DNA of 64,000 nucleotides from contig JBBRPE010000001.1 of NCBI GenBank assembly GCA_038228545.1, positions 46,924 to 110,923 of the forward strand, given 5' to 3'. Both the position numbers and the translations under genes were made by a program. Every line of letters starts with the position of its first letter. Within the stretch, counting starts at the first letter, position 1. This DNA is from Minisyncoccia bacterium (GTDB taxonomy: Bacteria; Patescibacteriota; Minisyncoccia; Phycocordibacterales; Phycocordibacteraceae). The notes beneath the pieces were generated by a model. The model saw only the letters and a program-made list of their open reading frames with translations. It searched no databases and had not been told where the DNA came from. This document shows, piece by piece, positions 10,588 to 60,986 of the stretch.

Positions 10588-11622
10588 TTACCAGGAAAGC
10601 TGACCGCCGGTCTTGTATTCGGTCACGCGTGTCTCAAAGAAGTTCTTCTCCTTATTGAGGTCAACGGCCTCGCTCATCCAGGGGAATGGATTGGCAACGT
10701 TGTATTGCGCTGGAAGTCCCACGCTCGCAAGACGACGGTCAGCAATGTGCTCGATGTATTGCTTGAAGCCGTCTGCGTTCATACCGAAGATTCCCTTTGG
10801 GAAAACTTCCGTAGCAAAGGTGTATTCGAGGACGACAGCACGCTTCACAAGGTCTACCATGCGCTGCTGGAATTCTGGGGTCCACAGCTCAGGCTGTTCC
10901 TCCTTTATGGAGTTAATCATGTTCACACCGAAGTTCAGGTGCTGCGACTCGTCGCGCATAATGTACTGAATTTGTTCTGCAGAACCAGTGAGCTTGTTCT
11001 GACGTTGGAAGCCGAACATAACAGCGAATGATGAATAGAAGAAAATACCTTCCATGATGAGCGAGAACACTATGAGGTTCTCCAGGAAGAGTTGGTCATT
11101 CTCAAATGTTCCGGTCTTAAACGCCGGGTCGAAGATTCCTTCGTTCAAGTTAAGGACGAGATTGTCCTTGTTGTAGATACTTTCTACCTCACGATACATA
11201 TTAAAGATACGACTCTCGTCCATGCCAAGCGATTCCACAATGTACTGGTACGCATGCGTATGGATAGCTTCCTCGTAGCCCTGACGAAGAAGGTACATGC
11301 GGCACTCGGGAGAAGTAACGTGCTTGTACACCGCAAGCACGACATTGTTTGCGGCAATGGAGTCTGCAGTCGTAAAGAAACCAAGAACAGTCTCGAACGC
11401 CTGACGCTCGTCTGCAGTCAGAGCAGTCTGACTCTTCCACTGCTCGATGTCGCGCTGCATCGAAATCTCCGTTGGAAGCCAGTGATTACTATTACCTGCC
11501 ATGTATGCCTCCCACGCAAATTTATGACGCATTGGATAGAGCTGCATCACATCGGCATCCCCACCGTTAATTATCTTTCGGTTGTTAACGTTGACGGGTG
11601 CTGCACCGTGGTTGATAGGCAT
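10588..11622 (-). CDS. nrdB: ribonucleoside-diphosphate reductase class I beta subunit
   Basis: Ferritin-like di-iron motifs EEAIHTHAY and IMEGIFFYSSF. Located downstream of nrdA. Confidence 0.9.
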   Translation of the reverse strand: MPINHGAAPVNVNNRKIINGGDADVMQLYPMRHKFAWEAYMAGNSNHWLPTEISMQRDIEQWKSQTALTADERQAFETVLGFFTTADSIAANNVVLAVYKHVTSPECRMYLLRQGYEEAIHTHAYQYIVESLGMDESRIFNMYREVESIYNKDNLVLNLNEGIFDPAFKTGTFENDQLFLENLIVFSLIMEGIFFYSSFAVMFGFQRQNKLTGSAEQIQYIMRDESQHLNFGVNMINSIKEEQPELWTPEFQQRMVDLVKRAVVLEYTFATEVFPKGIFGMNADGFKQYIEHIADRRLASVGLPAQYNVANPFPWMSEAVDLNKEKNFFETRVTEYKTGGQLSW

Positions 11623-11766
11623 ACGAGGTAGTTTGAATTAATAATCCGGGTTCGAGGTCTCCGACTTAGGTCGTACCATTTTCGCCTTCTTCCCCGCTCT
11701 TAGCAACTTTTGAGATAATCAGAGACGGCCTAGATTTGTGACTTATCCACACTTCGCCAATAAATC

Positions 11767-11790
11767 AAAACCCCTCGCCAGAGGGGTTTT
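11767..11790. terminator. hairpin (aaaacccctc-gcca-gaggggtttt) between nrdA and nrdB; possible attenuator or bidirectional terminator
   Basis: Perfect 10-bp stem flanked by A-run and T-run. Confidence 0.45.
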
Positions 11791-11816
11791 GATTTCGTTT
11801 TCATGTCCTCACGACT

Positions 11817-11903
11817 TCAGATACTAGGCGCGAGGAGTTCGCGCGAGAAGACGTACTAGCAGTACGTTGACGAGCGAGAACGAACTCGCAACAACGTAGA
11901 TGG
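11817..11903 (+). repeat. 88-nt structured interspersed element, copy A
   Basis: tcagatactaggcgcgagg...agacgtactagcagtacg...ctcgcaacaacgtagatgg. See finding. Confidence 0.75.
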
Positions 11904-11917
11904 TGTCGTTTTACGAG

Positions 11918-14872
11918 CTAGCTTTCGCAGGATTCGCAGATGCCGGACTCCATCCCCGCTGCCACACGAGCCAACTTCGCCTTCCATTCGGTGTCTGAGA
12001 AGCCCACAGGAATGCCTGATTCGCTCACGGTGACCGTTTCAATGGTGCCAAACTGTGGATTCTCAATACGCTCCACCACGACCTCTGTGTGGCTTTCTGC
12101 GGTCATTGGAGCTGGCTGTACCATGGCCAAGGCAGGCTCGCCCACCATCACCGACGAAGCTACGGCACCGGCTACTGCAGCTGCCCCACGGGTATGGGTA
12201 GAGCCGTATTCCGCAGTGCTGGTGGTCGACTTCTCCACCTGGGAAGCACCGAGTGTGCGAAGGTAGTAGGTAGTCTTGAGACCCATTTCCCATGCGAGGA
12301 AGTAGGCCTCGGAGAGTTCGCGTCCGGATGTTCCGTTGTAGAAGATGTTAAGGGACTGGGACTGGTCAATCCATTTGCCACGACGTGCAGCTGCCTCGAT
12401 GAGCCATTTCGCATCAATTTCAAAGACTTCCTTGTACTTCTCGCGAAGGCCGAATGGAATCTCCGAAATACCCTGAATGGAACCGTCTGCATACTTGATG
12501 CGGTTCAGCATTGCAGACGACCACATGCCAAGCTTCTTCAAATCCTCAACGAGGTATTTATTAAGAACAACGTATTCACCTTCCTTGTTGGACTTTACGT
12601 AGATGTTTTTGTAGATAGGCTCAACACACGGAATACAACCGACGAGATTTGCGGTCGAGGCAGTCGGTGCGATAGCCATCGTGTTTGAGTTGCGCATACC
12701 ATGCGCCTTCACGTGCTCACGAACCGAAGACCAGTCGAGCTTACCACCACGTTTCAATTTCACTTCCTCACCGCGCTCACTCTGGAGCAAATCGATAGTG
12801 TCCTGCGGGAAAATGTCGCGATCCCACTTACTACCCTTGTAGGTTTCGTATGTACCGCGCTCCGCTGCTAGTTTGGACGAACCGAGGATGGCATTGTACG
12901 CAACGACTTCCATGGACTCGTCAGCAAAGGCAACTGCCTCAGGTGTATCGAAGTTAATGCCGAGAAGATAGAGTGCGTCATGGTAACCACGAACACCAAG
13001 ACCAACCGGGCGATGACGCATGTTTCCGCGACGAGCATCCTCCGTTGGGTAGAAGTTAAGGTCGATAACGTTATCGAGCATACGCATTGATGCCTGCGTC
13101 ACCTTTGCGACCAAGTCATGATCGAAGAACGCCGTGCCATCTGCCTTGTAGGAAACAAACTTCGCGAAGTTGAGTGAGCCAATGGTACATACCGCAGTCT
13201 CTTCTGAATTCGTATTGAGTGTGATTTCCGTGCAGAGGTTTGAGTTGTGCACGACACCGACATGGTCCTGTGGTGAGCGGACGTTGGATGGGTCCTTCCA
13301 GGTAATCCATGGGTGGCCCGTTTCAAAAAGCATGGCAAGCATTTTCTTCCAGAGGTCACCTGCTGGAATGCGCTTGAACTGCTCGATGACACCAGTGTCA
13401 ACCATCGCTTCGTATTCGACATAGCGCTTCTCAAATGCCGCCCCATAGAGGTCGTGAAGGTCCGGTACGTCATTTGGCGAAAACATGGTCCAGTCTCCTC
13501 CATCGCGTACACGCTTCATGAACATATCCGGAATCCAGTTTGCTGTATTGATGTCGTGCGTACGACGGCGCTCGTCTCCCGTGTTCTTGCGAAGCTCAAG
13601 GAAGTCCTCGATGTCGAGGTGCCACGTCTCGAGATACACACAGCCCGCACCACGGCGCTTACCTGAGCGGTTAATAGCGAGATTCACGTCGTTCGCAATC
13701 TTAAGGAATGGCACAATGCCTTGCGACGGTACGCCTGTACCCTTAATAAAGGAGCCCGTAGCGCGAACCGGAGTCCAGTCAGTGCCGGTACCACCCGACC
13801 ACTTCAGGTACTGTGCATTATCAGATACAGACTTGAAGATTCCTTCGAGAGAGTCCGGCACTGTGTTGAGGAAGCAGTTAGAAAGCTGTGCCTTCTTTGC
13901 TCCTGCTTGGAAGAGCGTGCGACCGCCCGGTGTGTAGTAGAAATTACTAAGCAAGCCATAGAACTCAAGTGCGACGCGCTCGCGGTCTTCTTTCTTTTCG
14001 TTAAGGGAAAGTCCCATAGCAATACGCATCCAGAGCATCTGCGGAGTCTCGAGCGGCTTCTTAGTCTTTGGGTCTTCCATACAGTAGCGGCTGGACATGA
14101 TTTCGAGGCCCATGTACTCGAAGAGCGAGTCGTTCTCAATTTTCATCTTGCGCGCCATGCCAGCAAGATCATACTCGCCCATGCGCACGTCCAGATTACC
14201 TTCTTCGATGGCCTTAGTGATGTTGCGGACGAATACACGCTCATGTTCGAGTGCGAGCTCGTCTTCCTTAAACGACGAGCCGAAGACTTCCCCATACATG
14301 CGATGTAAGTGAAGAGCAGCGGCGAGCTTCGAGTACGCGGGGTCGCGCTCAATCATGGAACGAACAACCGCGATGAGTGCGCGCTTCACTTCGTCGGTGG
14401 TCATTCCTTCGTAGAGCTCGTACTTGAGCTGGGACATGATGTGATCTACATCAACGTCTCCCTTTACGAATTTCACGAGATTTGCACGTACGCGTGATTC
14501 GTCAAAGGCTTCTTCCTTTCCACTTGCGGTTTTAATGGTGAGTTTCTTCTCCTCAACCTTCTGAATTACTTCCTGGAGTTTCTCTTCGCGCTTCTTGGAG
14601 TGCTCGTAGCGGTACACGATATAGTGGCGAGCAACCGTAAGGTGTCCTTCGCGCATAAGCGTGAATTCAACGAGGTCCTGCACGTTTTCCACCGAAGGAG
14701 TTTGGTCCTGAAAACGTTCCTGAAGTTCAGCAATAATTGCTGTGGTCATTTCTTCGAGCTTCGAGGACTCAACCGGCACATGCATTGCGTCGAAAGCTTT
14801 ACGCATTGCTTCAGTAATCTTTTCAATCTCAAACTCTACGATAGTGCCGTTGCGCTTTTTGACTTGCTTCAT
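11918..14872 (-). CDS. nrdA: ribonucleoside-diphosphate reductase class I alpha subunit with N-terminal ATP-cone and C-terminal extension
   Basis: ATP-cone at the N-terminus, the catalytic NrdA core, and a C-terminal Cys pair (CESCES). Confidence 0.95.
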   Translation of the reverse strand: MKQVKKRNGTIVEFEIEKITEAMRKAFDAMHVPVESSKLEEMTTAIIAELQERFQDQTPSVENVQDLVEFTLMREGHLTVARHYIVYRYEHSKKREEKLQEVIQKVEEKKLTIKTASGKEEAFDESRVRANLVKFVKGDVDVDHIMSQLKYELYEGMTTDEVKRALIAVVRSMIERDPAYSKLAAALHLHRMYGEVFGSSFKEDELALEHERVFVRNITKAIEEGNLDVRMGEYDLAGMARKMKIENDSLFEYMGLEIMSSRYCMEDPKTKKPLETPQMLWMRIAMGLSLNEKKEDRERVALEFYGLLSNFYYTPGGRTLFQAGAKKAQLSNCFLNTVPDSLEGIFKSVSDNAQYLKWSGGTGTDWTPVRATGSFIKGTGVPSQGIVPFLKIANDVNLAINRSGKRRGAGCVYLETWHLDIEDFLELRKNTGDERRRTHDINTANWIPDMFMKRVRDGGDWTMFSPNDVPDLHDLYGAAFEKRYVEYEAMVDTGVIEQFKRIPAGDLWKKMLAMLFETGHPWITWKDPSNVRSPQDHVGVVHNSNLCTEITLNTNSEETAVCTIGSLNFAKFVSYKADGTAFFDHDLVAKVTQASMRMLDNVIDLNFYPTEDARRGNMRHRPVGLGVRGYHDALYLLGINFDTPEAVAFADESMEVVAYNAILGSSKLAAERGTYETYKGSKWDRDIFPQDTIDLLQSERGEEVKLKRGGKLDWSSVREHVKAHGMRNSNTMAIAPTASTANLVGCIPCVEPIYKNIYVKSNKEGEYVVLNKYLVEDLKKLGMWSSAMLNRIKYADGSIQGISEIPFGLREKYKEVFEIDAKWLIEAAARRGKWIDQSQSLNIFYNGTSGRELSEAYFLAWEMGLKTTYYLRTLGASQVEKSTTSTAEYGSTHTRGAAAVAGAVASSVMVGEPALAMVQPAPMTAESHTEVVVERIENPQFGTIETVTVSESGIPVGFSDTEWKAKLARVAAGMESGICESCES

Positions 14873-23414: not shown

Positions 23415-24210
23415 TTACTAAGGCCAGGCCTTGGTATACTGCTCGCGTGTACCAAGGCCTGGCCTTAGTAATAACCCGTTGCTCGCATGGGAATGAGGAT
23501 AATCCAGTTCGGAGTAAATGAATGGTATCACTGCTACAGCCGTGGTGTGGATAAGCGCATGATTTTTCAAGAAGCCGCAGACTATCAGCGCTTCCAAATG
23601 CTTCTCTATGTCTGCAACAGTACTATTCCGATTCATCTAAGTGAGATAGCGAAACGTCCCCAAGGCCTGGCCTTGGGAGAGGTCATCAGCGAAATACGAG
23701 GTGAGCAGTTCGTGGATATTGGTGCCTATGCACTTATGCCGAATCACCATCATCTCTTGCTGCGTGAACGAGTCGAGGGAGGCACAACAGCTTTCATGCA
23801 GAAATTGGGTACAGCCTATACGATGTACTTCAACAAGAAGTATGAGCGCACCGGATCTCTCTTTTCCGGAAAGTTCAAGGCGAAGCATGTGGCCACAGAT
23901 GAATATTTCGCACGTATCGTGAATTATATTCATGGGAACCCCGCAGAACTACATGAGCCGGGATGGAAGAATGGATTGATACGAGACGAGAGGAGGCTTA
24001 AACAGTTTCTTTCTTCATATCGTTTCTCAAGTTTGCCTGACCATGATACTGAAGATGAAAGAGTGGAAGGTCATCTAATAAACAAGAACTCTGTTCTCGA
24101 ACTTATCGGATACACTCCAACATTTGAAACACTTATGGAAGATGCATATACGTTTCAACGCGACGTGGACTTCGATTGACCGTATACCAAGGCCTGGCCT
24201 TGGTATACGG
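23415..24210 (+). mobile_element. RAYT (REP-associated tyrosine transposase) gene flanked by REP-like palindromes
   Basis: A compound hairpin at 23415-23472 (two inverted copies of ttactaaggccaggccttggta), an internal ccaaggcctggccttgg at ~23660, and a perfect 31-nt palindrome ccgtataccaaggcctggccttggtatacgg at 24180-24210. Confidence 0.7.
23487..24179 (+). CDS. IS200/IS605-like HuH Y1 transposase of the RAYT subgroup
   Basis: HuH motif LMPNHHHLLL and the Tyr motif NYIHGNPAE. Confidence 0.8.
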   Translation: MGMRIIQFGVNEWYHCYSRGVDKRMIFQEAADYQRFQMLLYVCNSTIPIHLSEIAKRPQGLALGEVISEIRGEQFVDIGAYALMPNHHHLLLRERVEGGTTAFMQKLGTAYTMYFNKKYERTGSLFSGKFKAKHVATDEYFARIVNYIHGNPAELHEPGWKNGLIRDERRLKQFLSSYRFSSLPDHDTEDERVEGHLINKNSVLELIGYTPTFETLMEDAYTFQRDVDFD

Positions 24211-24241: not shown

Positions 24242-25312
24242 TTAGTAGGCGTCGGAACGGGTCTGGGTGTCACCTCGGAAGACGCGATGTAGGTAGAAGT
24301 TATATACAAGGACTATCGGAAATAGGGGCCCGAGTCCAAAGAGCATAAACTCAAGTGTCTTTCTGCTCGACGCGGCGTCGTAAATAGTGAGCGAAGGCGG
24401 AATGATGTACGGAAAGACACCGACCAGCATACCGAGCATAGCGAGCACGAATATGCCCAGGCAGAGATTGTGAAGTGCAGGGCCCGTGCTTTTTTTAATG
24501 ACGAGAACAATCAGCCAGAGTGAGAGCACTCCCATGCATGCCGTTATGCCAAAAAGCAGATAATTGCTCGGGTACATGGTCCAACGCTCAAAGAAAAGAT
24601 AGCTCTTACTCGGAAGTAGGAGCGTCGCGCCAAGTAATGCGCCACCGGTCACAGCTCCTGCGATAAGAATACGCATGAAGGTGTTTGGTGACGCTTCTTT
24701 CCCTGCTTTCTTAATCAGATATGCGTACCCAACGAAGACGTAACTCATCAGCACACCAATAGTAATAAGGAATGTGAGTGGCGTAATGAAATCGAATGCA
24801 GTACCGGAAAATTCCCCAGTGGTAACGGAAATACCCGAGAGCAGTCCGCCGACAGCGAGCCCCTGCCCCACACCAGCCAAGAGCGAACCGAATCCAAATA
24901 AGCGACTCCACAACTTCTTGTTCGTGCCGACAGCATGGAATTCAAATGACACTGCTCGCAGAATAAGTCCGAAGAGCATCGTCATGACCGGAATATAAAG
25001 TGCAGAAAGAATAATCCCGTACGCAGTCGGGAATGCGCCAAAAAGCATACCGCCTGCTATCACGAGCCAGGTTTCGTTTGCGTCCCATATCGGACCGAGC
25101 GTGTGCATCATCGCCGCACGTTGCTCTTCTTTCTGCGGAAGTAAGGAAAGTATGCCGAGACCGAGGTCCGCACCATCAAGCAAGATGTAGAGTGCAACCG
25201 CAAGACCTATTGCGCCGAACCACGCGAGTGCAAGCATCGGATCGGTAAGGTACTGCATCATACGCTTGGAAGTGTGCTGGTAAGGTCGGGACCTTTCTTC
25301 ACTATTTTCCAC
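24242..25312 (-). CDS. cydB: cytochrome bd ubiquinol oxidase subunit II
   Basis: CydB-like ~9 TM protein immediately downstream of cydA. Confidence 0.85.
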   Translation of the reverse strand: MENSEERSRPYQHTSKRMMQYLTDPMLALAWFGAIGLAVALYILLDGADLGLGILSLLPQKEEQRAAMMHTLGPIWDANETWLVIAGGMLFGAFPTAYGIILSALYIPVMTMLFGLILRAVSFEFHAVGTNKKLWSRLFGFGSLLAGVGQGLAVGGLLSGISVTTGEFSGTAFDFITPLTFLITIGVLMSYVFVGYAYLIKKAGKEASPNTFMRILIAGAVTGGALLGATLLLPSKSYLFFERWTMYPSNYLLFGITACMGVLSLWLIVLVIKKSTGPALHNLCLGIFVLAMLGMLVGVFPYIIPPSLTIYDAASSRKTLEFMLFGLGPLFPIVLVYNFYLHRVFRGDTQTRSDAY

Positions 25313-26661
25313 GTGAAGTAAACGAAGAGGAAACCAAATACCAGATAGATGGACGTAAAGATGCCTGTCGTTATCGCGACCGCGCTCGCATTCAGTCCGC
25401 TCGAGAGGCCGTGCTCGGTACGCAGCAAGTGATACACCACCCAGGGCTGACGGCCGATTTCACGCACCATCCATCCAGCTTCGGTTGCGATGAATCCAAG
25501 CGGTGTACCAAAGATAAAAAGCCACCAGAACAGCTTGTCTCCTCCCTGACTGGCGCGGAGCGGCACACCCGGCAGTGCTTCACCTGTTTTTAAGTAGCCA
25601 CGCTTCCAGTACCACACACCAAGAATCATAAGAAGGAACATGCAAACTCCGCACGCAACCATGATACGGAAGGAGTAGAAGACGAGAACGTCGTCGATAA
25701 GCGTCGGACGGTCGTTGGTAGGAAAATCATTCAGTCCCGGCACAGTACCGGTTGAAGAGTGTGTGGTAAGCAGAGAAAGAACGACCGGTAGTTTAATTTC
25801 GAACGCGTTCCCGTTATTTTGTGCGTTCGGCCAGGCGACGAGCGCCCAGTCGGCTCCCGTGCCCGGAAGGTTTGTATCCCAGTGCAGTTCTGTTGCCGCG
25901 AGCTTTGCCGGCTGATACTTCGCAATCGTCGTGCCCGAGAGGTCGCCGAGCCCCATCTGGAGTGGGGTCACGATAATAGCGAGCGCAAGACAATACTTGA
26001 ATGTCGTAAGAAAGAATTCACGCGTAGATTCCGGAACCGTGCGACGCATAAGTACAAGAGCGCAGATGCCAAGCATCATGAAGAGTGTTGCCTCTATACA
26101 TGCGACCCACATATGCAGGAACGACACGAGGGTATCGGGATTAAAGATAGCGACGAGGTAATCGGTCACGACGAGCTTTCCGTTCTGAACTTCAACGCCT
26201 ATAGGCACTTGCATCCAGGAGTTTGCCGCCATAATCCAGAACGCTGAAAGCGTCGCGCCCACGAATATCATCGCGTTCGAGAAGAAGTGCATCCACTTAT
26301 TCACTTTATTCCAACCGAAGACAAAGATGCCGAGGAAGGCTGCTTCGAGTGCAAACGCGACCGTGGACTCGAATCCGAGAATATTACCGAAGAAGTCCCC
26401 TGCCGCCGTCGAGAATTTTGCCCAATTCGTGCCGAATTCAAATTCGAGTGGAAAGCCGGTGGCTGTCCCAATGGCGAACGTCAGTATGAAAATCTTGGTC
26501 CAGAACTTGAGCTGACGATAATACGTTTCTTTCTTGGTCTTGAGCCACATCGCTTCCATCGTGAGCATGTAGAGCGAAAGGCCAATAGACATAAGCGGCC
26601 ACAATATATGGAACGCGGCAGTATCGCCGAACTGTAAGCGAGAGATAGTAAGTACATCCAT
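25258..26661 (-). CDS. cydA: cytochrome bd ubiquinol oxidase subunit I
   Basis: CydA family; Q-loop region and heme ligands. Confidence 0.9.
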   Translation of the reverse strand: MDVLTISRLQFGDTAAFHILWPLMSIGLSLYMLTMEAMWLKTKKETYYRQLKFWTKIFILTFAIGTATGFPLEFEFGTNWAKFSTAAGDFFGNILGFESTVAFALEAAFLGIFVFGWNKVNKWMHFFSNAMIFVGATLSAFWIMAANSWMQVPIGVEVQNGKLVVTDYLVAIFNPDTLVSFLHMWVACIEATLFMMLGICALVLMRRTVPESTREFFLTTFKYCLALAIIVTPLQMGLGDLSGTTIAKYQPAKLAATELHWDTNLPGTGADWALVAWPNAQNNGNAFEIKLPVVLSLLTTHSSTGTVPGLNDFPTNDRPTLIDDVLVFYSFRIMVACGVCMFLLMILGVWYWKRGYLKTGEALPGVPLRASQGGDKLFWWLFIFGTPLGFIATEAGWMVREIGRQPWVVYHLLRTEHGLSSGLNASAVAITTGIFTSIYLVFGFLFVYFTWKIVKKGPDLTSTLPSV

Positions 26662-33246: not shown

Positions 33247-33582
33247 ATGGCCACGCTTGGGATTACTATCCATGTTCCAATTGAAATCGAACCCGCAGTC
33301 CGGCGTCTCTGCCGGACTGCGGTGCACAAGCAGATTGCGCACTATCTGAAGCGCAGCGGCGCCAAGCACGAGCTCACGGTGGAGGCCCAGCCCAAAGAGG
33401 GCGGCAAAAACTACATCATCGCCGTGCTCGAGCTACCCTACATGCCCAACTGGGAAGACATCCCGGACATCGTGGGGTCGGTGCTCTCACATCTCATGAA
33501 CGGCGAATTCAACGTCGAGGTGCGAGACGCTCGCTCGGAGCAAACGCTCCCCTACACCCGAATCGACCTTAAGGCGGCCTAG
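33247..33582 (+). CDS. hypothetical protein, GC3-rich ORFan (~60% GC)
   Basis: gggagg RBS 7 nt upstream of the ATG. Composition is atypical for this genome. Confidence 0.45.
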   Translation: MATLGITIHVPIEIEPAVRRLCRTAVHKQIAHYLKRSGAKHELTVEAQPKEGGKNYIIAVLELPYMPNWEDIPDIVGSVLSHLMNGEFNVEVRDARSEQTLPYTRIDLKAA

Positions 33583-40708: not shown

Positions 40709-43702
40709 TTACATCCGAGTTAGGAGTTCTATTAGCTGCGCGCGTTGCTGAATAATTTTAGCATCCGTCTGTGACCATATAAGTTTCTCAAGTGCAATAA
40801 TATACGGTTTTGCTAGTGCAATTATTATCTGCCTCTTCTCTATTTCCTGAAGGGTAAGAAGGAGCAAGGCCTTAATTATAGGAGAGACGGGGAGCGCATT
40901 TATCTTCAACCTCAGTTGCACAATAAGCTGGAATGTAGTTTGCGGTGTAGTGGTCGCCGTACTGCTTGCCGTAAAGTCCACAGTTCCATTCCCATCTTTA
41001 TCGACCAACGGATTCATGGCCACGCCTGATGTATTAACAGTAAATGTCGCAGTTGTTCCTGTCTGCGTATTTATGCCCCCAAACCGTTGCAGGGTCGTTA
41101 TACTCCCATCTTGGTTCAATGGACCGACCTCAAGCGTGGTAGTTCCCGACCCATATCCCGTTGCCTGGACTGATACGCTGACACCCTTAGGTATATACAA
41201 GTACTTCTCGTCGTCATACGAATCCGCATAGCTACCAGGGATATCTTCTACCATTCGGTAGAATTCTGTTGTTCCAGGTATTGAAACAAATCCAGTTTGA
41301 TTTCCCAGGTTATCGGTCGCGACGATATTAACAGGAGAATGTGCGCTAATTGTATACATTAGAGGATTCAATCCCGGAGTAGGTTTAACTGTCTGAATAT
41401 AGGACGATAGGATATCACTTCTTCCAAGTAGCATAGATATCTCATTTTCAACCGGTAGTGCTGAAAGTAGGCTTTGATGCACCACGTTTACATGCCTATC
41501 ACGAAGATAATCCTTTGCATTGAAGAAAAGGGTGTTGGAGGAATTCTGTATGGAGCTTGGGGTAACGACTGTGTCATCACCATCTTCCGTTGTGCTCGCA
41601 ATATGTTGATAATTTATATCGAAGCCGCAAGTAAACCCGAGTACTCCTCCTGAATCGCAATGGAATTGCCCGTTTGTCGTCGTGTACAAGTAGTTCACAG
41701 GAGTTGGCTGACCCCAGCCTGAAAGGCTTATGATCGTAGTGCTTGCCGTGGGGGCCCATGTGTCGAGCTTCGCATGGGTAGTCGCCTCTTTACTAAGTAT
41801 CGTGGCTGAAAGTTTCATTGGCACTTTCAAGTCTGATGTGGAGAGCGTGCTATGGATACCAAGTTTATCTGTGAGGAAATCGACCATTTCTTGATAGGAA
41901 TTTATGCCGTCTGCACCAAATTCAGTCCCATACGGATTTGTAGAATCAGTCGTGGAGAACATTGCAACCGGCGTTGTCACATGACTGAAATACGCTGGCG
42001 ACGGAAGCAAACCGTACATACCAGGCATAGTTGCTGCAACGGCACGCACCGTACCGGAGTACGTTACGATTCCGAGCATGTTTGTCAGGTCGTCACCGTG
42101 AAGCATTTGACCTACAGCTTTTGGCGTCCCAAGCTGTGGAGTGCCTACAAGAACAATCTTGTCCACCAAATTGCTTCTTCCCTCTGCCTCGAGCCTAAGC
42201 ATGAGTGCTTTTGCCAATAGACCACCATTACTGTGAGCAATTATCGTGACCTTGCCCGTTGCAGAACTTGAAGCGAGAGTAGAAACATCCTGATCCAAGT
42301 AATCTCTGGTGTCGTCCTCCCGAAGAACTCCATTCGCAACAATATCAGTGACGTCATATCGCCAGTCATACGGATACGCATACCACCTATTGATGAGCGG
42401 CTGTGTGGAAGTGGCAGTCGAGGAAGCTATCGAGTCCATGTAGGAGATGAACGAATCGTATACGTGGACAGTGTTGAATATTGAACCGATTATCGATCCG
42501 ACATATATATTCGGCTGACTGTTTCCGCTCGCGTCTAAGGCGAGTCCGCCTAGATTCGAATTAAAGATTTGCGAGCCCCACAGGACGGTCTTCGTACCAT
42601 TCGCATTTTTTCGTATGAGCTCGCTAGTGAGGGTTCCGGGAAGAAATAAGACATTCGATCCCGTGGACCCTACTTGCGGCGTTAAGGTGGGGTTTGTAGG
42701 AGCAATAATGTCACACGACGCCGCGTCATAGCAAATGGCGAACGCAGGAATATTGTTTGTGTCGGCTATTGCACTCGATGTTCCAGTATTACTGAGCGCT
42801 CCCCATTGCCACGGGTCACCTTTGTTCGGGTCAATATGAAATTGCTGCATACAGCCTCCCACACTAGTACTGTGAGCTTTCGCAAATCCATCAGGTCGCA
42901 CATCATATCCTGAGTACGCTCCCGGTATAAAGGCATTGATGTGATAGTTAGAACTTGGACAACCCGTTAACCCTTCGAAGAAAACGACTGCGTAATAATC
43001 TCCTGCCGGCAACGAGTTCAGAAGAGAATGCTGAATTGCTATGCCATCAGGTATTCCACCACTTACATAATTTGGTGCCGTGACGATACTCCCACCGATG
43101 GCGTGATCGAGCACAACACCAGTCGGTGGACCTGGTGGCGTTGTAGTACCGGTGTACGAGATACCCGTAAGATTGAAGCCTAAGTCGCCAAGGCCCACAA
43201 CAGTCGCAGTTCCAGACGCGTAGGTATCATTCGCGGAACCATACGGAAGCATCGCGCCCGCCCCATTATTTACGGAGATGCCTGTATGTATGAGGTAGTA
43301 CTTGTTTGGATCCAACTGGTAACCACCTGGAATTGAATACGTAACAGTAGTGTCAGTGTCCACTCCTACTGCGCCAACAGGATTCAATGAAAGTGCTAAA
43401 GTCCCGGTTGTTAGAACACGAACGCACTGTACGTAATTTGCATCATCGCAAGCATCAATTCCGAAGTAGATGTTCGGACCATAATACGGTGAACGATTGA
43501 AACGTATTTGAAAAACCGCTTGCGTGAGATTTCCGCTTATTCCTGTACCCAACTGTTGCGCCCAGTCGCCACTCGTAGAAAGTGGTCCAGGGACGAGCGT
43601 ATCGTAAACAGATTGGATAATATCTGCATGAGCGGGCAGTGGAGAAAAAGCCCCGAATGCGGCGAGGACGGATAGGGCGCCCATGGTGGCGAGACGGCGC
43701 AT
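40709..43702 (-). CDS. large secreted protein with LCAT/PGAP1-like alpha/beta-hydrolase (lipase/acyltransferase) domain
   Basis: Real start MRRLATMGALSVLAAFGAFSPLPAHA (signal peptide) with an aggag RBS. YAYPYDWRYD (LCAT DWR motif) and IIAHSNGGLL nucleophile elbow. The upstream 207 codons of the track ORF were rejected. Confidence 0.65.
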   Translation of the reverse strand: MRRLATMGALSVLAAFGAFSPLPAHADIIQSVYDTLVPGPLSTSGDWAQQLGTGISGNLTQAVFQIRFNRSPYYGPNIYFGIDACDDANYVQCVRVLTTGTLALSLNPVGAVGVDTDTTVTYSIPGGYQLDPNKYYLIHTGISVNNGAGAMLPYGSANDTYASGTATVVGLGDLGFNLTGISYTGTTTPPGPPTGVVLDHAIGGSIVTAPNYVSGGIPDGIAIQHSLLNSLPAGDYYAVVFFEGLTGCPSSNYHINAFIPGAYSGYDVRPDGFAKAHSTSVGGCMQQFHIDPNKGDPWQWGALSNTGTSSAIADTNNIPAFAICYDAASCDIIAPTNPTLTPQVGSTGSNVLFLPGTLTSELIRKNANGTKTVLWGSQIFNSNLGGLALDASGNSQPNIYVGSIIGSIFNTVHVYDSFISYMDSIASSTATSTQPLINRWYAYPYDWRYDVTDIVANGVLREDDTRDYLDQDVSTLASSSATGKVTIIAHSNGGLLAKALMLRLEAEGRSNLVDKIVLVGTPQLGTPKAVGQMLHGDDLTNMLGIVTYSGTVRAVAATMPGMYGLLPSPAYFSHVTTPVAMFSTTDSTNPYGTEFGADGINSYQEMVDFLTDKLGIHSTLSTSDLKVPMKLSATILSKEATTHAKLDTWAPTASTTIISLSGWGQPTPVNYLYTTTNGQFHCDSGGVLGFTCGFDINYQHIASTTEDGDDTVVTPSSIQNSSNTLFFNAKDYLRDRHVNVVHQSLLSALPVENEISMLLGRSDILSSYIQTVKPTPGLNPLMYTISAHSPVNIVATDNLGNQTGFVSIPGTTEFYRMVEDIPGSYADSYDDEKYLYIPKGVSVSVQATGYGSGTTTLEVGPLNQDGSITTLQRFGGINTQTGTTATFTVNTSGVAMNPLVDKDGNGTVDFTASSTATTTPQTTFQLIVQLRLKINALPVSPIIKALLLLTLQEIEKRQIIIALAKPYIIALEKLIWSQTDAKIIQQRAQLIELLTRM

Positions 43703-43987
43703 ACCCCTGTACTCCTGAAGCGTACCACTGGCAGTACATGGTGCAAGCAAGACCGATGTGCGTATACTGGGATAAGTACCACTCCCAAAGCGCTGCGGTA
43801 GACGCGAGTATGGGAAGCGAGGTTGACCACGTGGAAGGATCTTTGCAACTGAGCCGTTGTCTGTGGCCACGGATTGTAACAGCTCTGCGTAGAGCAAAGC
43901 GGCAGCATTGGTGACATGGGTCACCCGCGAGACCGAAGTGCACCGAAGTATCCTCTTAGACCAACGCGACTCGCTACGATTAAAGAA

Positions 43988-44022
43988 GGCCGCCCCAACC
44001 CCGGGGCGGCCATTTCTTTTAT
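43988..44022. terminator. bidirectional intrinsic terminator
   Basis: ggccgcccc-aacccc-ggggcggcc followed by atttctttt. Confidence 0.6.
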
Positions 44023-44045
44023 CCTCGACAAATAGGACCAAAAGC

Positions 44046-44609
44046 TCAGAACACGTAGCTACGTTTGAGTTTAATGCGAAGCTTCTTATGTTCAGGAATA
44101 ACACTCCCAACGAGCGCCCAGAACTTTGCAGAGTGGTTGTGATGCACGGTGTGTGCAAGCTCGTGGACCACCAGATAATCGGTGAGCTCACTCGGCAAAT
44201 GCACGATGCGATAATTAAAAGAAAGATTTCCCTTCTGGGAACAGCTTCCCCATCGACTTTTCTGATTCCGTATTGAAATGCTCCCGTGAGTGAATCCGTG
44301 CGCGGTAGAGAAGTGACGTACACGCTCGATCACAAGCGTACGAGCAGATTTCTGTGCCTCTATGTATGCCTTTGACCCGCGACGCAGTCGCGGGAGCTGT
44401 TCTTTCGGATTCTTCGCCTCCCGTTCTGCACGCTTTTGAAATTTCTTCACTGCGGCTTCTATCCACAGCGATTTTGTCCGTACGAATCGCTCAACTGCCG
44501 CGGTGCTCACAAAGCGTGGCTTCGTAACAACAACTCGTCCGTCCGTATGAATAGTTATCCGCGCGCTAAGCGCCCGTGCGGATTCCTTAATTTCGTAAGT
44601 GTACGCCAC
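44046..44609 (-). CDS. YgjP-like (DUF45/M48-type) zinc metallohydrolase
   Basis: VVHELAHTVHHNHSAKFW. Confidence 0.75.
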   Translation of the reverse strand: MAYTYEIKESARALSARITIHTDGRVVVTKPRFVSTAAVERFVRTKSLWIEAAVKKFQKRAEREAKNPKEQLPRLRRGSKAYIEAQKSARTLVIERVRHFSTAHGFTHGSISIRNQKSRWGSCSQKGNLSFNYRIVHLPSELTDYLVVHELAHTVHHNHSAKFWALVGSVIPEHKKLRIKLKRSYVF

Positions 44610-45800: not shown

Positions 45801-46433
45801 ATGTCAGACACCGATGTGTCGTATGAAAAAATAGACGCGCTGAACCTAGCGGGCGCCGCCCGTTACGCTCAGCTCGTTGCGTCGGGACGTGGCGACTTGC
45901 CTCATCCGGTCGAAGATCTTGAGCTGTTCAGTCGCACCGCCACCGACAGGAATATGTTGGACATTGGTTGCGGCTGGGGACACTACGTTCACAAGTTCAT
46001 CAAAGCAGGTTTCAGCTACGTCGGCGTGGACTCCTCACCGGAGATGCTGCAGGAAGCGCGTAAGCGCAATCCGGACGAACATTTCTACGAGGCCAGCTAT
46101 CTGAATCTCGAAGGCACATTCGCGCCGAATCGCTTCGATGCCATTTGGTCCTGCTGTGCTTTCGGCGGCGAGCCCAAGGCCCGCATGCCGCAGGCGCTTG
46201 CACAGCTCCGGCGCGTGCTCCTTCCCGGCGGCGTTATGGTCATCGTTCTCGCCAACAACGAAAACAGTGAGGAGTGTCTCGCTGAAGGCGCTCACGGCGA
46301 GATGTACTACACGGAGTGGTTTGCGGACGAGTTCAAGCAGACGCTCCAGCACGCCAATTTCGTCGTCGAAAAAGCCTTCAAACGTTTCCGGCACGGTTCG
46401 ATGACCTTCATCGCTCGCAAACCTCCGGACTAG
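45801..46433 (+). CDS. class I SAM-dependent methyltransferase (Methyltransf_11-like)
   Basis: LDIGCGWGHY motif I. Confidence 0.8.
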   Translation: MSDTDVSYEKIDALNLAGAARYAQLVASGRGDLPHPVEDLELFSRTATDRNMLDIGCGWGHYVHKFIKAGFSYVGVDSSPEMLQEARKRNPDEHFYEASYLNLEGTFAPNRFDAIWSCCAFGGEPKARMPQALAQLRRVLLPGGVMVIVLANNENSEECLAEGAHGEMYYTEWFADEFKQTLQHANFVVEKAFKRFRHGSMTFIARKPPD

Positions 46434-46550: not shown

Positions 46551-47399
46551 CTAACGAATCAAAGAATCAATATCAATATGGAGCTGGATAACCCCGCCAT
46601 CTTTTATGGTTATGGTCGTCGGTACTCCTTGTGCTCTCCCAATACTTCCATCGGTAACTGCCATACGCACATAGTAGGTACCTGCCGGAAGTGAGGCAGA
46701 GAAGGTGCCGTCAGCACCGGGAGTGAGCGTGGTCACAAGCGTAGTGCGATTTGCCTGATATATAGCAACTTTACGAGCCGCGAACATAGCCGGTGTCGGT
46801 TTGCAGGGATTAGTCGCATTTTCCACAGGACATGCAGGAGCTATAGTCATGGTCCCTTGGAGCGAACCCATCGCCTCACCCATACCGGGTGCCACCGAGA
46901 AGGTGAAGCGGTAGTCAGCAGCAGTAATGGTCGTTTTTGAATTCTTTGCAGGCGTAACACTCATGAGTGTTACGTGCTTAGAGCCGAAGGATACCGGACT
47001 ACCCATAACGAAGGTCTGCGTACGTACTCCACCATCGCCTTCTATCTTTGCAGTAATAGAGACCGTACCTGCCTGGATACACTGAACGTCCGTCGGACAA
47101 CGGCTGTCGGAAACTACGGAAAGCGGAGTAATGTGAACGCCGTTCGAAAGAATACGCTGGTTGAGCGATGCTGTGGTCGATTCTGTTTCAGGAGGATTCG
47201 GTACCGTAGTGGTTGCCGAAGGTACGTTCGTGACAGGCGCTGGCTGTTCAACGACCGGTGCAGATACGACGTTTGGATGCATAACCGTCCATAGCCCCCA
47301 TCCGGCAATAACAATAACGACGAGTCCCAAGAGGCCTAAAAGCGTGTTGCGAGTATTCATAGTACTAGTATAGACGGACAAGACAGCCCTTTCTGACAA
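46551..47399 (-). CDS. secreted/membrane-anchored hypothetical protein with beta-sandwich (carboxypeptidase-regulatory-like) region
   Basis: N-terminal TM/signal LLGLLGLVVIVIAGWGLW. Thr/Val-rich. Confidence 0.5.
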   Translation of the reverse strand: MSERAVLSVYTSTMNTRNTLLGLLGLVVIVIAGWGLWTVMHPNVVSAPVVEQPAPVTNVPSATTTVPNPPETESTTASLNQRILSNGVHITPLSVVSDSRCPTDVQCIQAGTVSITAKIEGDGGVRTQTFVMGSPVSFGSKHVTLMSVTPAKNSKTTITAADYRFTFSVAPGMGEAMGSLQGTMTIAPACPVENATNPCKPTPAMFAARKVAIYQANRTTLVTTLTPGADGTFSASLPAGTYYVRMAVTDGSIGRAQGVPTTITIKDGGVIQLHIDIDSLIR

Positions 47400-47765
47400 C
47401 TAGTTCCTTGGCTTAGTTTTCACCTTCGGTTTCGCGACTTTCGGTTTTTTGGGTTTTGGAAGCGGCACGTTCGCGGCGGTAATACGGACCAATTCAGCTA
47501 GCCACTCGCGGTTATCAATAAGGTCCGCGTCTATTTCCATCGAGGGCTTCGCGCCCTTATAGGCAGTTCCCTCTTTATACGCATCCCCGACAAATTCCTT
47601 CCCTGGCTCCGTAATTTTCATATACAGTGTGTCGTCACACACAAGCGCCACCACCCGCCCATCGGCATAGAGCGCATACTCCCCAAACATCTTCCGCGCG
47701 GCTACTCCTTGAGCTCCACGGAGCTGGTCGAGGATGTATTCAATGGTCTCCGCTCGTGTTGCCAT
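47400..47765 (-). CDS. TfoX/Sxy N-terminal domain protein (competence regulator-like) with Lys/Pro-rich tail
   Basis: ARKMFGEYALYADGRVVALVCDDTLYMKITE. Confidence 0.7.
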   Translation of the reverse strand: MATRAETIEYILDQLRGAQGVAARKMFGEYALYADGRVVALVCDDTLYMKITEPGKEFVGDAYKEGTAYKGAKPSMEIDADLIDNREWLAELVRITAANVPLPKPKKPKVAKPKVKTKPRN

Positions 47766-47768
47766 ACC

Positions 47769-48764
47769 TTACGCCAGTAGTTGGGTAACGAGTGCGACCA
47801 TTTGGTCTTTCTTCTTCGGATTGCTTTCCGCAATAAGAAGTGTGAGCGCTGTAAGTGATGCCGGGTTTATGTTCCGGCCACCCTTCACTTTTGCCTTACG
47901 TAGAAACCAGACAAAGGCAAAAGCACCCGACCGTTTATTGCCGTCGGTAAATGGATGGTTCTTCACCATGAAATAGAGCAGATGCGCCGCTTTTTCCTCC
48001 GCAGTAGCGTATACGGGTTTCCCGCCAAATGACTGCATGACATTACCGACGATACCTTCGACGTTTCCTTCGCTACGTTCCTGGGCAAAAATATCGGTCG
48101 CTTCGCCCTTGTCGATAAGCTCGCTGCGCAAATGTACGATTGCATCTTTGAGCTCCGTACCCGAAAGCTTAATCGCTTTCTTGCTGGTACCGACTGCTTT
48201 CAGTGTTTCCTTGTCGTACGCATCGAGCGAAATCCACGTGCTAGAAAATTCCTTCACGAGCTCAAGGATACTCTTCGGATCAAGTGCAACATGTTCCGGT
48301 AAGAGTGCCTGGATATCGGCAACTGCCTTCATAAAGGCGTCGTAGTTCTTCCCTACCTGCTTGCGGTTTATCGTATAACCCTTGGTGATATGCTCCCGCA
48401 AGGTCTTAGTCGCCCAGACGCGGAAATTCGTACCAGTTACAGAACTAACTCGATACCCTACAGCAATGAGTACGTCCAGATTATAAAGTTTAACGTTTCT
48501 TGTGACCTGCCTTTTTCCCTCTTTCTGAACTTGTAAGAAATCCTTACAAGTTCCTTTTTGATTCAGCTCCTTATCCTTATAGATATTTCTCAAGTGTTGA
48601 GTGATGTTTTGTGGGGTTACGTCGAACATGGCCGCGATTTCCGCTTGAGTAGCCCACAGAGTTTCATGCGAAAAGTCACCCCGTAGTTCGAGGGCTCCGT
48701 TTTTCGCTTGATATATGACAACGCCCGCTTTCTTACCGTTCGACTTCATATTCCATTTTATCAC
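47769..48764 (-). CDS. Fic/Doc-family protein with N-terminal RhuM-like domain
   Basis: Doc-type motif HPFTDGNKRSGAFA near the C-terminus. The N-terminal ~200 aa resemble RhuM-family virulence/DNA-binding proteins. Confidence 0.7.
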   Translation of the reverse strand: MIKWNMKSNGKKAGVVIYQAKNGALELRGDFSHETLWATQAEIAAMFDVTPQNITQHLRNIYKDKELNQKGTCKDFLQVQKEGKRQVTRNVKLYNLDVLIAVGYRVSSVTGTNFRVWATKTLREHITKGYTINRKQVGKNYDAFMKAVADIQALLPEHVALDPKSILELVKEFSSTWISLDAYDKETLKAVGTSKKAIKLSGTELKDAIVHLRSELIDKGEATDIFAQERSEGNVEGIVGNVMQSFGGKPVYATAEEKAAHLLYFMVKNHPFTDGNKRSGAFAFVWFLRKAKVKGGRNINPASLTALTLLIAESNPKKKDQMVALVTQLLA

Positions 48765-54027: not shown

Positions 54028-57789
<3,762 letters not shown>

Positions 57790-57800
57790 AAAGAATTAGA

Positions 57801-59975
57801 TTACGCTTCCGTTTCTATCTCGATGTCGAGAGGCTCGATATCAAGCGCGAGACCACGGATCTGGTTAGTAAGCACCGAGAAGGACGCCGGTGTGCCTGCG
57901 TGAGACACTGGCTCGTTCTTAACGATGGCATCGAAGGTCGCGGAGCGGCCGGTGATGTCGTCTGACTTGATGGTGAGCATCTCGCGGAGCGTATATGCCG
58001 AACCGTAGCCGAGAAGCGCCCACACTTCCATTTCTCCGAAGCGCTGACCGCCGTTCTGCGCCTTACCTCCAAGCGGCTGCTGGGTGATGAGTGAGTACGG
58101 ACCGATAGAGCGCATGTGAATCTTGTCTTCCACCATGTGATGGAGTTTCAAGATGTACATGTAACCAACGGATACGGGCTGTGCAAACGCGGCACCAGTG
58201 TGACCGTCGTAGAGCTGCATCTTGCCCGAGCGAGCAAAGCCTGCGGCTTCGAGCTCGTCGCGGATTTCGTCTGCAGTCGCTCCTGCAAACGGAGGCACGA
58301 TAGCCTGGTAGCCGAGCGTATGCGCAGCAAGACCAAGGTGAAGCTCAAGAATCTGACCAAGGTTCATACGGGACGGGACACCGAGTGGTGTGAGAATCAC
58401 ATCTACCGGATTTCCGTTCTCGTCGTATGGCATGTCTTCAGCTGGAAGCACACGGGAGATAACACCCTTGTTTCCGTGACGGCCGGCGAGCTTGTCACCC
58501 ACCGATACGTTACGAACCTGCGCGACCGTAACAACAATCTTCTTGATGATGCCGGTCTCGAGTTGGTCGCCCTTCTCGCGTGAGAAGACACGAACACCGA
58601 TAACGCGACCGCGCTTGCCTCCTTCCATGCGAAGTGAGGTGTCCTTCACGTCCTTTGCCTTGTCTCCGAAGATGGAACGAAGAAGGCGCTCTTCCGGCGT
58701 CAGCTGGGTCTCACCCTTCGGCGTTACCTTACCGACGAGAATGTCTCCTGGACGAACTTCAGCACCGATGCGCACGACACCTTCCTCATCGAGGTTCTTA
58801 AGGCGGAGCTCACCGACGTTTGGAATGTCGTGGGTCGTCACTTCCGGTCCGAGCTTGGTGTCGCGAACGGCACACTCGAAGTCCTCGATGTGAACGGTAG
58901 TAAATTTGGATTCCTGAACGAGGCGCTCAGAAATGATGATTGCGTCCTCGTAGTTTGCACCGTTCCACGACATGAAGGCGACGCGTACGTTCTGTCCGAG
59001 TGCCATCTGGCCCTGGTCGGAAGACGAAGCGTCAGCGAGGATGTCGCCCTTCTTGACCTTGTCGCCAGTGTTAACTATCGGGCGCTGATTGAATGCTGAG
59101 TTCTGGTTTGTCTGAGTAAGTCCCTGAAGTTTATACTCGTGTGGCTTGTCCTTCGTCCCCTTAACGACAATCTTGCGAGCGTCAGCGTACGTGACTTCAC
59201 CTGATTCAAGAGCGATAACGAGGCGGCCAGTGTTGCGAGCGGCGTGCTCTTCAATGCCGGTTGCAACAAGTGGTGCCTCAGGAATGAGGACCGGTGTTGC
59301 CTGCTTCTGCATGTTTGAACCCATGAGTGCACGGTTGGACTCGTCGTGATCCATGAATGGAATCATTGCGGTTGCAGCGGAGAACATCTGGTAGGTCGAT
59401 GCGTCCATGAGTGTAATCTCCTCACGAGTAACGACCGCAGGCTCACCACCCTTACGGACTTCAATCTGGTCAGGAATGATGTGACCCTTCGCGTCTACGG
59501 GAGTAGCAGCATGCGCAATAGCGTGACCTTCTTCCTCGAGAGCGTTGTAATACTTCACCTCGTCGGTGACAACACCCTTCTTCACGGTTGCGTATGGCGT
59601 CTCGATAACGCCGAACTCGTTCGTGCGCGCATGAAGCGCGAGACGAAGGATAAGTCCGATGTTCTGACCTTCCGGTGTGTGAATTGGGCAGAGGCGACCG
59701 TAATGCGATGGATGTACGTCACGCACTTCGAAGCCGGCGCGTTCACGGGTGAGACCGCCTGGGCCAAGAGCTGAGAGGGTGCGCATGTTCTCAAGCTCAG
59801 CAAGAATGTTCTGCTGGTCCATGAACTGCGAGAGCTGGTTCGCGGTATAGAACTCGCGAACACTAGCCTGGAACGGACGAGGATTCACGAATGCCATTGG
59901 AAGAGCCGTCTCTGATTCAATAGTAGACATGCGGTCCTGGATATTGCGCTTCATGCGCGACATACCAACACGCAT
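57801..59975 (-). CDS. rpoB: DNA-directed RNA polymerase subunit beta, C-terminal ~2/3 (downstream of an in-frame TAG)
   Basis: Collinear with the RpoB rifampicin-cluster region through the C-terminus (SQFMDQ...RISALGPGGL...GHKG...). Confidence 0.9.
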   Translation of the reverse strand: MRVGMSRMKRNIQDRMSTIESETALPMAFVNPRPFQASVREFYTANQLSQFMDQQNILAELENMRTLSALGPGGLTRERAGFEVRDVHPSHYGRLCPIHTPEGQNIGLILRLALHARTNEFGVIETPYATVKKGVVTDEVKYYNALEEEGHAIAHAATPVDAKGHIIPDQIEVRKGGEPAVVTREEITLMDASTYQMFSAATAMIPFMDHDESNRALMGSNMQKQATPVLIPEAPLVATGIEEHAARNTGRLVIALESGEVTYADARKIVVKGTKDKPHEYKLQGLTQTNQNSAFNQRPIVNTGDKVKKGDILADASSSDQGQMALGQNVRVAFMSWNGANYEDAIIISERLVQESKFTTVHIEDFECAVRDTKLGPEVTTHDIPNVGELRLKNLDEEGVVRIGAEVRPGDILVGKVTPKGETQLTPEERLLRSIFGDKAKDVKDTSLRMEGGKRGRVIGVRVFSREKGDQLETGIIKKIVVTVAQVRNVSVGDKLAGRHGNKGVISRVLPAEDMPYDENGNPVDVILTPLGVPSRMNLGQILELHLGLAAHTLGYQAIVPPFAGATADEIRDELEAAGFARSGKMQLYDGHTGAAFAQPVSVGYMYILKLHHMVEDKIHMRSIGPYSLITQQPLGGKAQNGGQRFGEMEVWALLGYGSAYTLREMLTIKSDDITGRSATFDAIVKNEPVSHAGTPASFSVLTNQIRGLALDIEPLDIEIETEA

Positions 59976-60041
59976 ACGAGCCTGGAGAAGCTCACCAACG
60001 AAACGAACACGACGGAAGCCGAGGTGGTCGAAGTCGACCGG

Positions 60042-60986
60042 CTATGCAGTCGGGTCAGTGTTGAGGCGAGCGATTTCTCCGACGATGCGAACGAGGTCCT
60101 CAAGGGTGAGGGTGCGGTCTTTGGCGAGGGTCTTCGGGTCGACAGCAAGACCAAAACGAGCGTTCAGGCGGTGACGTCCAACCTTAGAAAGGTCGTAGCG
60201 CTCTGGGGTGAAGAGTGCGTTTACATAGGACTTCGCGTTGTCTGGAGTTGCGAGGTCACCATCGCGCATGCGGCGGTGAATCTCAACGTATGCGTCGTCA
60301 ACGGAAGCGGCAGTGTCGTGCGCGAGTGTGGTCTCAAGAGCAGCAGTAGCGATGTCGTTACCAATGAACTTCTTAAGAATAGCTTCCTTAGTACCTGCAC
60401 CAAGAATGGTGAGAAGGTTCGTAACTGGGAACTTGCGCTTGCGGTCAATCTTTACGTAGATGGCGCCATCAGCTTCTGAATCGATTTCAATCCAAACACC
60501 GCGTGATGGGATAATCTTTGCGCCGAACATCTGGCGACCCTTCACTTCCTCAGAAATAAAGAATGCACCGAATGAGCGAGCGAGCTGCGGCACGATAGCG
60601 CGCTCAACACCCGACACAATAAATGAGCCGTGTGGGGTCATCATCGGAATGTCTGCAAGGAATATATCCTGTGTCTTCTCCGAGCCCATCGTCTTGTTAA
60701 GAAGCGTAACGGTAGCCTTAAGAGGCGCCTCGTAGGTACGCATGTTTTCGCGAGCCTCTTCTTCGGTACCCTTCGGGTCACCTATTTCGAAACCTTCGAA
60801 CTTGAGTTCGAACTTCTTGCCGGAATAATCAGGAATCGGCGAGAACTCCTTGAAGAGCTCCATGAGTCCGTCCTTCAGAAGCCAATCAAACGATTCGCGC
60901 TGGTGTCCCACGAGATCGGGGAACTCAACGAGCGGTGCACGGAAAGCTTTGAACGTCTTCTGCACAAGCGTTTTGGTTTTCGACAT
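60042..60986 (-). CDS. rpoB: DNA-directed RNA polymerase subunit beta, N-terminal ~314 aa (ends at in-frame TAG at 60042-60044)
   Basis: N-terminal RpoB (MSKTKTLVQKTFKAF...). Same reading frame as 57801..59975. Confidence 0.9.
   Translation of the reverse strand: MSKTKTLVQKTFKAFRAPLVEFPDLVGHQRESFDWLLKDGLMELFKEFSPIPDYSGKKFELKFEGFEIGDPKGTEEEARENMRTYEAPLKATVTLLNKTMGSEKTQDIFLADIPMMTPHGSFIVSGVERAIVPQLARSFGAFFISEEVKGRQMFGAKIIPSRGVWIEIDSEADGAIYVKIDRKRKFPVTNLLTILGAGTKEAILKKFIGNDIATAALETTLAHDTAASVDDAYVEIHRRMRDGDLATPDNAKSYVNALFTPERYDLSKVGRHRLNARFGLAVDPKTLAKDRTLTLEDLVRIVGEIARLNTDPTA

Follow-up and report, generated by a model that had tools for sequence, protein, structure and literature searches.

An in-frame amber codon in rpoB of a Paceibacterota genome lies within a three-base patch that is probably a local error

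The rpoB gene in the 64-kb stretch of DNA analysed here (64,000 nucleotides, hereafter the window) is interrupted by an in-frame TAG, and this interruption probably reflects a local three-base error patch, arising from sequencing, template damage or assembly, in an essential gene that would otherwise be intact in the organism itself. The first-pass annotation had described the lesion as a single in-frame TAG. There is indeed one stop only, but the lesion is not single, as two missense changes, D317V and I319F, fall with it within 13 nt. The same annotation had left a sequence error, a true nonsense allele and a population variant side by side; error was among them, and the evidence from the patch now moves the weight strongly towards it. 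The features on which the analysis rests are as follows.

57801..60986, minus strand: whole rpoB reading frame, about 1061 codons, interrupted by a single TAG and closed by TAA
60042-60986, minus strand: upstream ORF of 314 aa in the ORF listing, ending in TAG
60042..60044, minus strand: the in-frame TAG, codon 315, at roughly E. coli beta residue 441
60030..60044, minus strand: anomalous patch TAG CCG GTC GAC TTC, delimited by the codon table of about 77 related loci, the invariant-column test and the PDB alignment
59976..60041, minus strand: the 22 codons that separate the TAG from the earliest codon able to serve as a start; they are coding and do not form a spacer
57801..59975, minus strand: mechanical downstream ORF of 724 aa, with its ATG at codon 338; the C-terminal part of rpoB and no independent gene
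54028..57789, minus strand: rpoC, intact, 1253 aa, 11 nt downstream of rpoB, in the normal rpoBC arrangement

Translation of 60986-57801 gives 314 codons 5' and 746 codons 3' of the internal TAG in one common frame, and across the site the minus strand reads ...ACT GCA TAG CCG GTC GAC TTC GAC CAC CTC GGC... The two ORFs at 60042-60986 and 57801-59975 had been taken for one collinear rpoB, which is borne out by their shared frame and by the TAG being the sole intervening stop. The 22 codons 3' of the stop translate as PVDFDHLGFRRVRFVGELLQAR and match a conserved beta segment, an assignment already made in the first-pass annotation and now supported by the relatives and by the alignment to solved structures. 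That these codons are coding rather than spacer also holds: codons 320-337 show 4-10 synonymous and no non-synonymous differences in comparison with each of five relatives (L002, L003, L004, L005 and L007), and from DHLG onward the protein is the same as in the relatives. The closest protein matches to the window RpoB are RpoB proteins of Parcubacteria/Paceibacterota metagenome-assembled genomes (MAGs) at no more than 90% identity, and judged by its sequence the host genome is a member of the Paceibacterota/Parcubacteria (CPR). The best 120 RpoB database matches are all 'partial' proteins of 350-820 aa, several of them on contigs of 50-190 kb, which may be due either to the ranking obtained for a 468-aa query or to frequent truncated rpoB calls in Paceibacterota assemblies.

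The odd bases of the patch, read on the minus strand, are 60044 (the T of TAG), 60037 (the T of GTC) and 60032 (the first T of TTC). The motif A-x-x-D-D-I-D-H-L-G is present in 72 of 72 full-length relatives, while the window reads A-*-P-V-D-F-D-H-L-G. In D317V, GAC has become GTC at the position of E. coli beta D443, and in I319F, ATC has become TTC at the position of I445; none of the 72 full-length relatives departs from either the aspartate or the isoleucine. For a change from D (GAY) to V (GTC) and from I (ATH) to F (TTC), the only single-step route is A-to-T on the coding strand. At the position of the TAG the three closest relatives carry AAG (Lys) and the next two CAG (Gln), and a change from AAG to TAG would be A-to-T like both missense changes, whereas one from GAG would be G-to-T. 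The suggestion that GAG to TAG should be reverted, restoring the Glu of E. coli, describes a possible event, but the position is variable (K, Q, V, R, T, H, L, M, A, E and others, at least 12 amino acids in all), and with AAG in the three closest relatives the codon taken from E. coli is, on this comparison, not the best-supported ancestral one. Whether the stop is counted from AAG or from GAG, the patch comprises three clustered purine-to-T changes within 13 nt on one strand.

When the window is aligned with the 72 full-length relatives (MAFFT), 290 RpoB columns are invariant among the relatives, and the window deviates at three of them: D317V, I319F and F380Y. Two of the three deviations therefore fall inside the patch, no more than four codons from the stop. 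The sequence DIDHLG is retained even in distant solved RNA polymerases in the PDB alignment, and with E. coli numbering taken as the offset from that alignment, the patch residues correspond to approximately beta 441, 443 and 445, in the CRE-pocket segment 443-451. Deletion of this segment (E. coli beta 443-451) reduces the half-life of the open complex to less than 0.04 of that of the wild type (PMC4499132), so that radical changes there are unlikely to be neutral. The remaining deviation, F380Y (TAT, 59847-59849, minus strand), corresponds to E. coli beta F506, directly before rifampicin cluster I; phenylalanine is invariant at this codon in the 72 relatives and in the aligned solved RNA polymerases, and the change may be either a true lineage-specific one or a further single-base error (T-to-A).

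For comparison with relatives we used 81 related loci, 80 from species-representative genomes (GTDB scan, ≤89% identity) and one from the closest protein match; the codon table around the site covers about 77 of these loci, and 72 relatives are full-length. Such a comparison had been proposed as a check on the first-pass annotation, and it leaves the stop private to the window: a tblastn search with the window RpoB found an in-frame stop in rpoB in 0 of 81 related loci, none shares the TAG, and the aligned codon 315 is a sense codon throughout. Related loci that are not cut by a contig or locus end have an uninterrupted rpoB frame of about 1060-1110 codons. Selection on the window gene was estimated by the method of Nei and Gojobori against five relatives; dN/dS is 0.04-0.12 over codons 1-314 and 0.06-0.08 over codons 338-1061. 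Purifying selection in both halves, together with the synonymous-only differences at codons 320-337, indicates that the lesion is evolutionarily instantaneous. A decaying pseudogene was rejected on the same values, 0.04-0.12 over both halves, and on the presence of a single lesion patch. Frame breaks in rpoB occur in 2 of the 81 related loci. In L060 (3157-3260) a gap of 20 N is flanked by odd substitutions (GFRRVR to GVRRAR, RVGM to RVCM) and by frame changes, and in L056 (4890-5150) a frameshift lies about 100 codons before the end of rpoB. Damaged rpoB therefore occurs in public MAGs at a level of a few per cent, with the clearest case adjoining an assembly gap. Neither exact-protein look-ups, made with the two rpoB ORFs and with RpoC, nor degenerate DNA scans across the patch in JGI metagenomes found a same-species sequence.

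To describe the substitution spectrum around the patch, we considered singleton sites, where a single sequence deviates from an otherwise uniform set of 17 relatives. Transversions between A and T account for 4 of 9 such substitutions in the window and for 12 of 198 in the 17 relatives (Fisher p=0.002); when the patch is left out, significance is lost (p=0.07). Within the N-terminal 530 aa of RpoC the window deviates at 1 of 193 invariant columns (C420T). The absence of a significant excess outside the patch and the single RpoC deviation indicate that the patch is an isolated event rather than one sign of an error process acting across the window. The RpoC change itself lies at codon 420 (56530-56532, minus strand), where DECGLPK is invariant in 71 relatives and DETGLPK is found here; the codon is ACT, and two adjacent base changes are needed to reach it from TGY.

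A consistent account of these data can be given if the assembled sequence departs from the working gene at three bases. The working gene would read ...GCA AAG CCG GAC GAC ATC GAC CAC... and would encode an ordinary, uninterrupted beta subunit, and in the assembled sequence three purine-to-T substitutions would have created the amber codon and replaced two invariant CRE-pocket residues. The three changes may have entered jointly, all deriving from a single template molecule or family of reads that was not representative. On one route, lesions on one strand, for example abasic sites, would have had A put opposite them during low-input or single-cell library amplification; on another, the patch could stem from read error of a systematic kind or, where coverage was low, from a wrong path taken through the assembly graph. 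Under the 'A rule' at abasic sites, a lost purine becomes T. The conversion of several purines on one strand to T, as expected under this rule, makes a damaged or mis-copied single template a plausible source. Clustered changes of the same type, on the same strand and at invariant residues, move the weight strongly towards error, and the pattern is not that expected of a selected site of readthrough or suppression. The lesion has the features of an artefact: it is biologically implausible, clustered, private among 81 loci and located in an otherwise conserved gene. Three considerations count against an error. The rest of the window resembles a high-accuracy assembly, in which random read error would not be expected to leave three wrong consensus bases within 13 nt; A-to-T lies outside the classic Illumina error class; and the residue at the stop is a variable one, as would also be required of a tolerated readthrough site.

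Several specific origins for the patch were considered and rejected. The 22-nt patch does not recur in the window at up to three mismatches, there are no notable local repeats near it and the window's ORFs include no reverse transcriptase domain, which argues against a diversity-generating retroelement, an ectopic donor or gene conversion. Template switching at a quasi-palindrome would account for the D-to-V change, which perfects a 6-bp GGTCGA..TCGACC, but the arms are very short and the other two changes stay unexplained. Inspection of both strands revealed no methylation or error motif common to the three sites.

The remaining readings either let the cell make a complete beta subunit by some unusual decoding or gene structure, or take the three bases as genuine. 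That TAG is a sense codon in the host, through code reassignment or pyrrolysine, is extremely improbable. An in-frame TAG would speak for it in rpoB alone, and the first-pass annotation, which held reassignment to be unlikely and TAG to be an ordinary terminator, was right on both points: the four genes it cited (9036-9620, 9841-10515, 33247-33582 and 45801-46433) do end in TAG, the 61 ORFs of at least 100 aa terminate with 37 TAA, 17 TAG and 7 TGA, and no other gene in the window is broken. About 50 further window ORFs have complete Pfam domain matches (among them DnaG, RpoD, NrdAB, CydAB, HisRS, a UvrD-like helicase and type IV pilus genes), leaving rpoB as the sole interrupted gene; none of these annotated ORFs shows another in-frame TAG, the sign of recoding that had been proposed for inspection, and DnaG terminates at TAG with RpoD next in the same frame. 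Other same-frame ORF pairs separated by TAG proved to be separate genes (DnaG/RpoD and TfoX_N/282-aa ORF) or shadow frames. The 64-kb window contains no tRNA gene, pylT and any other with anticodon CUA included, and no Rfam match, and pylSBCD genes are missing from the Pfam matches of its ORFs. As a possible readthrough-stimulating structure, the 75-nt RNA at the stop has a minimum free energy of −21.7 kcal/mol, which is not significant (z = −1.06), with 25 of 200 shuffled sequences folding at least as well, and the small hairpin GGUCG/CGACC arises from the patch itself. A compensating frameshift was rejected because the other frames read LHSRSTSTTS and CIAGRLRPPR and do not restore the DDID motif, and translational bypass because a hop over the stop would remove the conserved DHLGFRR. 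A literature search for in-frame stops in Patescibacteria rpoB gave no relevant result. Hardly any likelihood attaches to a natural split of rpoB into two separately translated polypeptides, as in archaeal B''/B'. Two long ORFs are present, but the 22 codons after the TAG include no ATG, GTG or TTG, so the first usable start lies 23 codons past the stop and the invariant DDIDHLGFRRVRFVGELLQ segment would be lost; the skipped segment, with its invariant DDIDHLGFRR, still evolves as coding sequence, and rpoB is one uninterrupted frame in all relatives not cut by a contig or locus end. It had been claimed that the second half lacks both a ribosome-binding site and a start codon. The start codon is indeed missing, but the argument from the binding site is weak: the ATG at codon 338 does lack an upstream SD-like or -10-like motif, and the coding strand has nothing promoter-like inside the gene downstream of the rpoB start, yet an SD-like motif located 7-16 nt upstream of the start is present in only 12 of the 61 window ORFs. 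It is thus the lack of a start codon and the loss of conserved residues that decide against a split, and the absence of a ribosome-binding site carries little weight.

Among the readings that take the three bases as genuine, a non-functional allele is the main rival to an error, though an unlikely one. It would represent a recent clustered mutation in a minority haplotype, in a dying or dead cell or in the cell behind a single-cell amplified genome (SAG), with the viable population intact. The clustering, the restriction to one strand and the single type of substitution fit lesion bypass in vivo equally well as copying in vitro, and the otherwise clean assembly speaks against generally poor data. 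However, a lethal allele cannot dominate a population and would normally lose to the intact assembly path, and the single consensus shows no second haplotype. A fixed and expressed allele, sustained by UAG readthrough or by a suppressor tRNA(CUA) elsewhere in the genome and with V317 and F319 tolerated, is very unlikely. Any inserted residue should be acceptable at codon 315, given the at least 12 amino acids found there in relatives, and rpoB is otherwise intact within a normal rpoBC operon. Against this, none of the 81 relatives has a stop at the site, the window offers neither a tRNA nor an Rfam element, readthrough at a low level would leave the cell short of a subunit that is essential and needed in stoichiometric amounts, and selection for readthrough leaves the replacement of D443 and I445 in the invariant CRE pocket unexplained. 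Fixation of all three T's in a living Paceibacterota, with readthrough or an unrecognised suppressor tRNA and possibly a strand-coordinated purine-to-T mutation in vivo, is a scenario that we hold to be no less doubtful. A redundant, freshly inactivated rpoB copy with an intact paralogue elsewhere in the genome would account for the tolerated nonsense codon, a reading without direct support that seems scarcely credible: the locus is the canonical rpoB-rpoC operon, with dN/dS of 0.04-0.12 and one lesion patch, there is no second rpoB within the window, and small CPR genomes are not known to carry duplicated rpoB.

Other parts of the window were also inspected. Many start codons, among them those at 3083, 21754, 18056(-), 44685, 40249(-), 63381(-) and 49465(-), have in place of an SD-like motif a -10-like TAnAnT (for example TATACT, TAGAAT or TACACT) at about -7 to -12, which suggests that leaderless mRNAs are widespread in this Paceibacterota genome. 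In the minus-strand region 46551-48764, three ORFs share a frame and are 0-3 nt apart. One encodes a RhuM/Fic-domain protein of 331 aa and the next a TfoX_N protein of 121 aa that ends in TAG; the last is the 282-aa ORF, which has no Pfam match and whose TTG start lies directly behind the TAG, an arrangement that looks suspicious. Also on the minus strand, cytochrome bd oxidase subunits I and II (24242-26661) and an aerobic class I ribonucleotide reductase with an ATP-cone large subunit and a small subunit (10588-14872) are encoded; oxygen-linked functions such as these are not typical of CPR/Paceibacterota genomes. Between a gene for an FAD-linked oxidase and the cyd operon, a Y1 transposase domain of the IS200-like type is encoded by a 230-aa ORF (23487-24179, plus strand). 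The ORF at 40709-44323 (minus strand), which starts with GTG and encodes 1204 aa, gives as its sole Pfam signal an LCAT-like lipase/acyltransferase at residues 648-919 and is followed by a 141-aa ORF without a match, and a 194-aa protein encoded at 9036-9620 (plus strand) has a PaaX central Cas2-like domain, with no CRISPR array or other cas gene seen nearby.

If the patch is an error, it carries no biological significance and calls for caution in annotation: an rpoB of this kind in a MAG would be called a pseudogene or two ORFs, with poorer marker-gene completeness scores and rpoB phylogenies as a consequence, and the remedy would be to restore three bases. It would also provide a cheap diagnostic, namely that when an in-frame stop is met in an essential gene, nearby departures from invariant residues should be checked before recoding is invoked. 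Should the allele instead prove genuine and fixed, an essential gene would depend on nonsense suppression in a reduced-genome bacterium, for which natural examples are rare, and the allele would also serve as a natural experiment on the RNA polymerase CRE pocket.

The lesion can be compared with several known systems. Laboratory E. coli rpoB amber alleles survive through suppressor tRNAs; as in the window, UAG lies inside the beta gene and a full-length product needs suppression, but those strains combine a known suppressor tRNA with one engineered or selected change, whereas here the window holds no suppressor and two invariant neighbours are altered. Stop codons are reassigned in several lineages and systems, such as UGA to Gly in Gracilibacteria/Absconditabacteria (code 25), TAG in recoded phages (code 15) and TAG in pyrrolysine decoding. 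The CPR host lineage and the in-frame stop in a conserved gene recall these systems, but here TAG is a normal terminator, one gene is affected and the window has no pyl gene or tRNA(CUA). RNA polymerase genes are naturally split in archaea (rpoB'/rpoB'') and in cyanobacteria and plastids (rpoC1/rpoC2), where the frame of a large subunit likewise occupies two ORFs; these splits have a second start codon, keep the conserved residues and are lineage-wide, none of which is true of the window rpoB. Strand-coordinated lesion-bypass clusters resemble the patch in comprising several purine-to-T changes on one strand over about one helical turn, a likeness that serves as a mechanistic analogy only. The spurious 'internal stop' pseudogenes of MAGs and SAGs share with the present case an essential single-copy gene broken at a point, intact surroundings and a lesion that relatives do not have; they differ in that here there is no gap, contig end or indel, and three substitutions of the same type lie on one strand. 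Three such substitutions within 13 nt would be unusual for random read error and suggest one damaged or mis-copied template.
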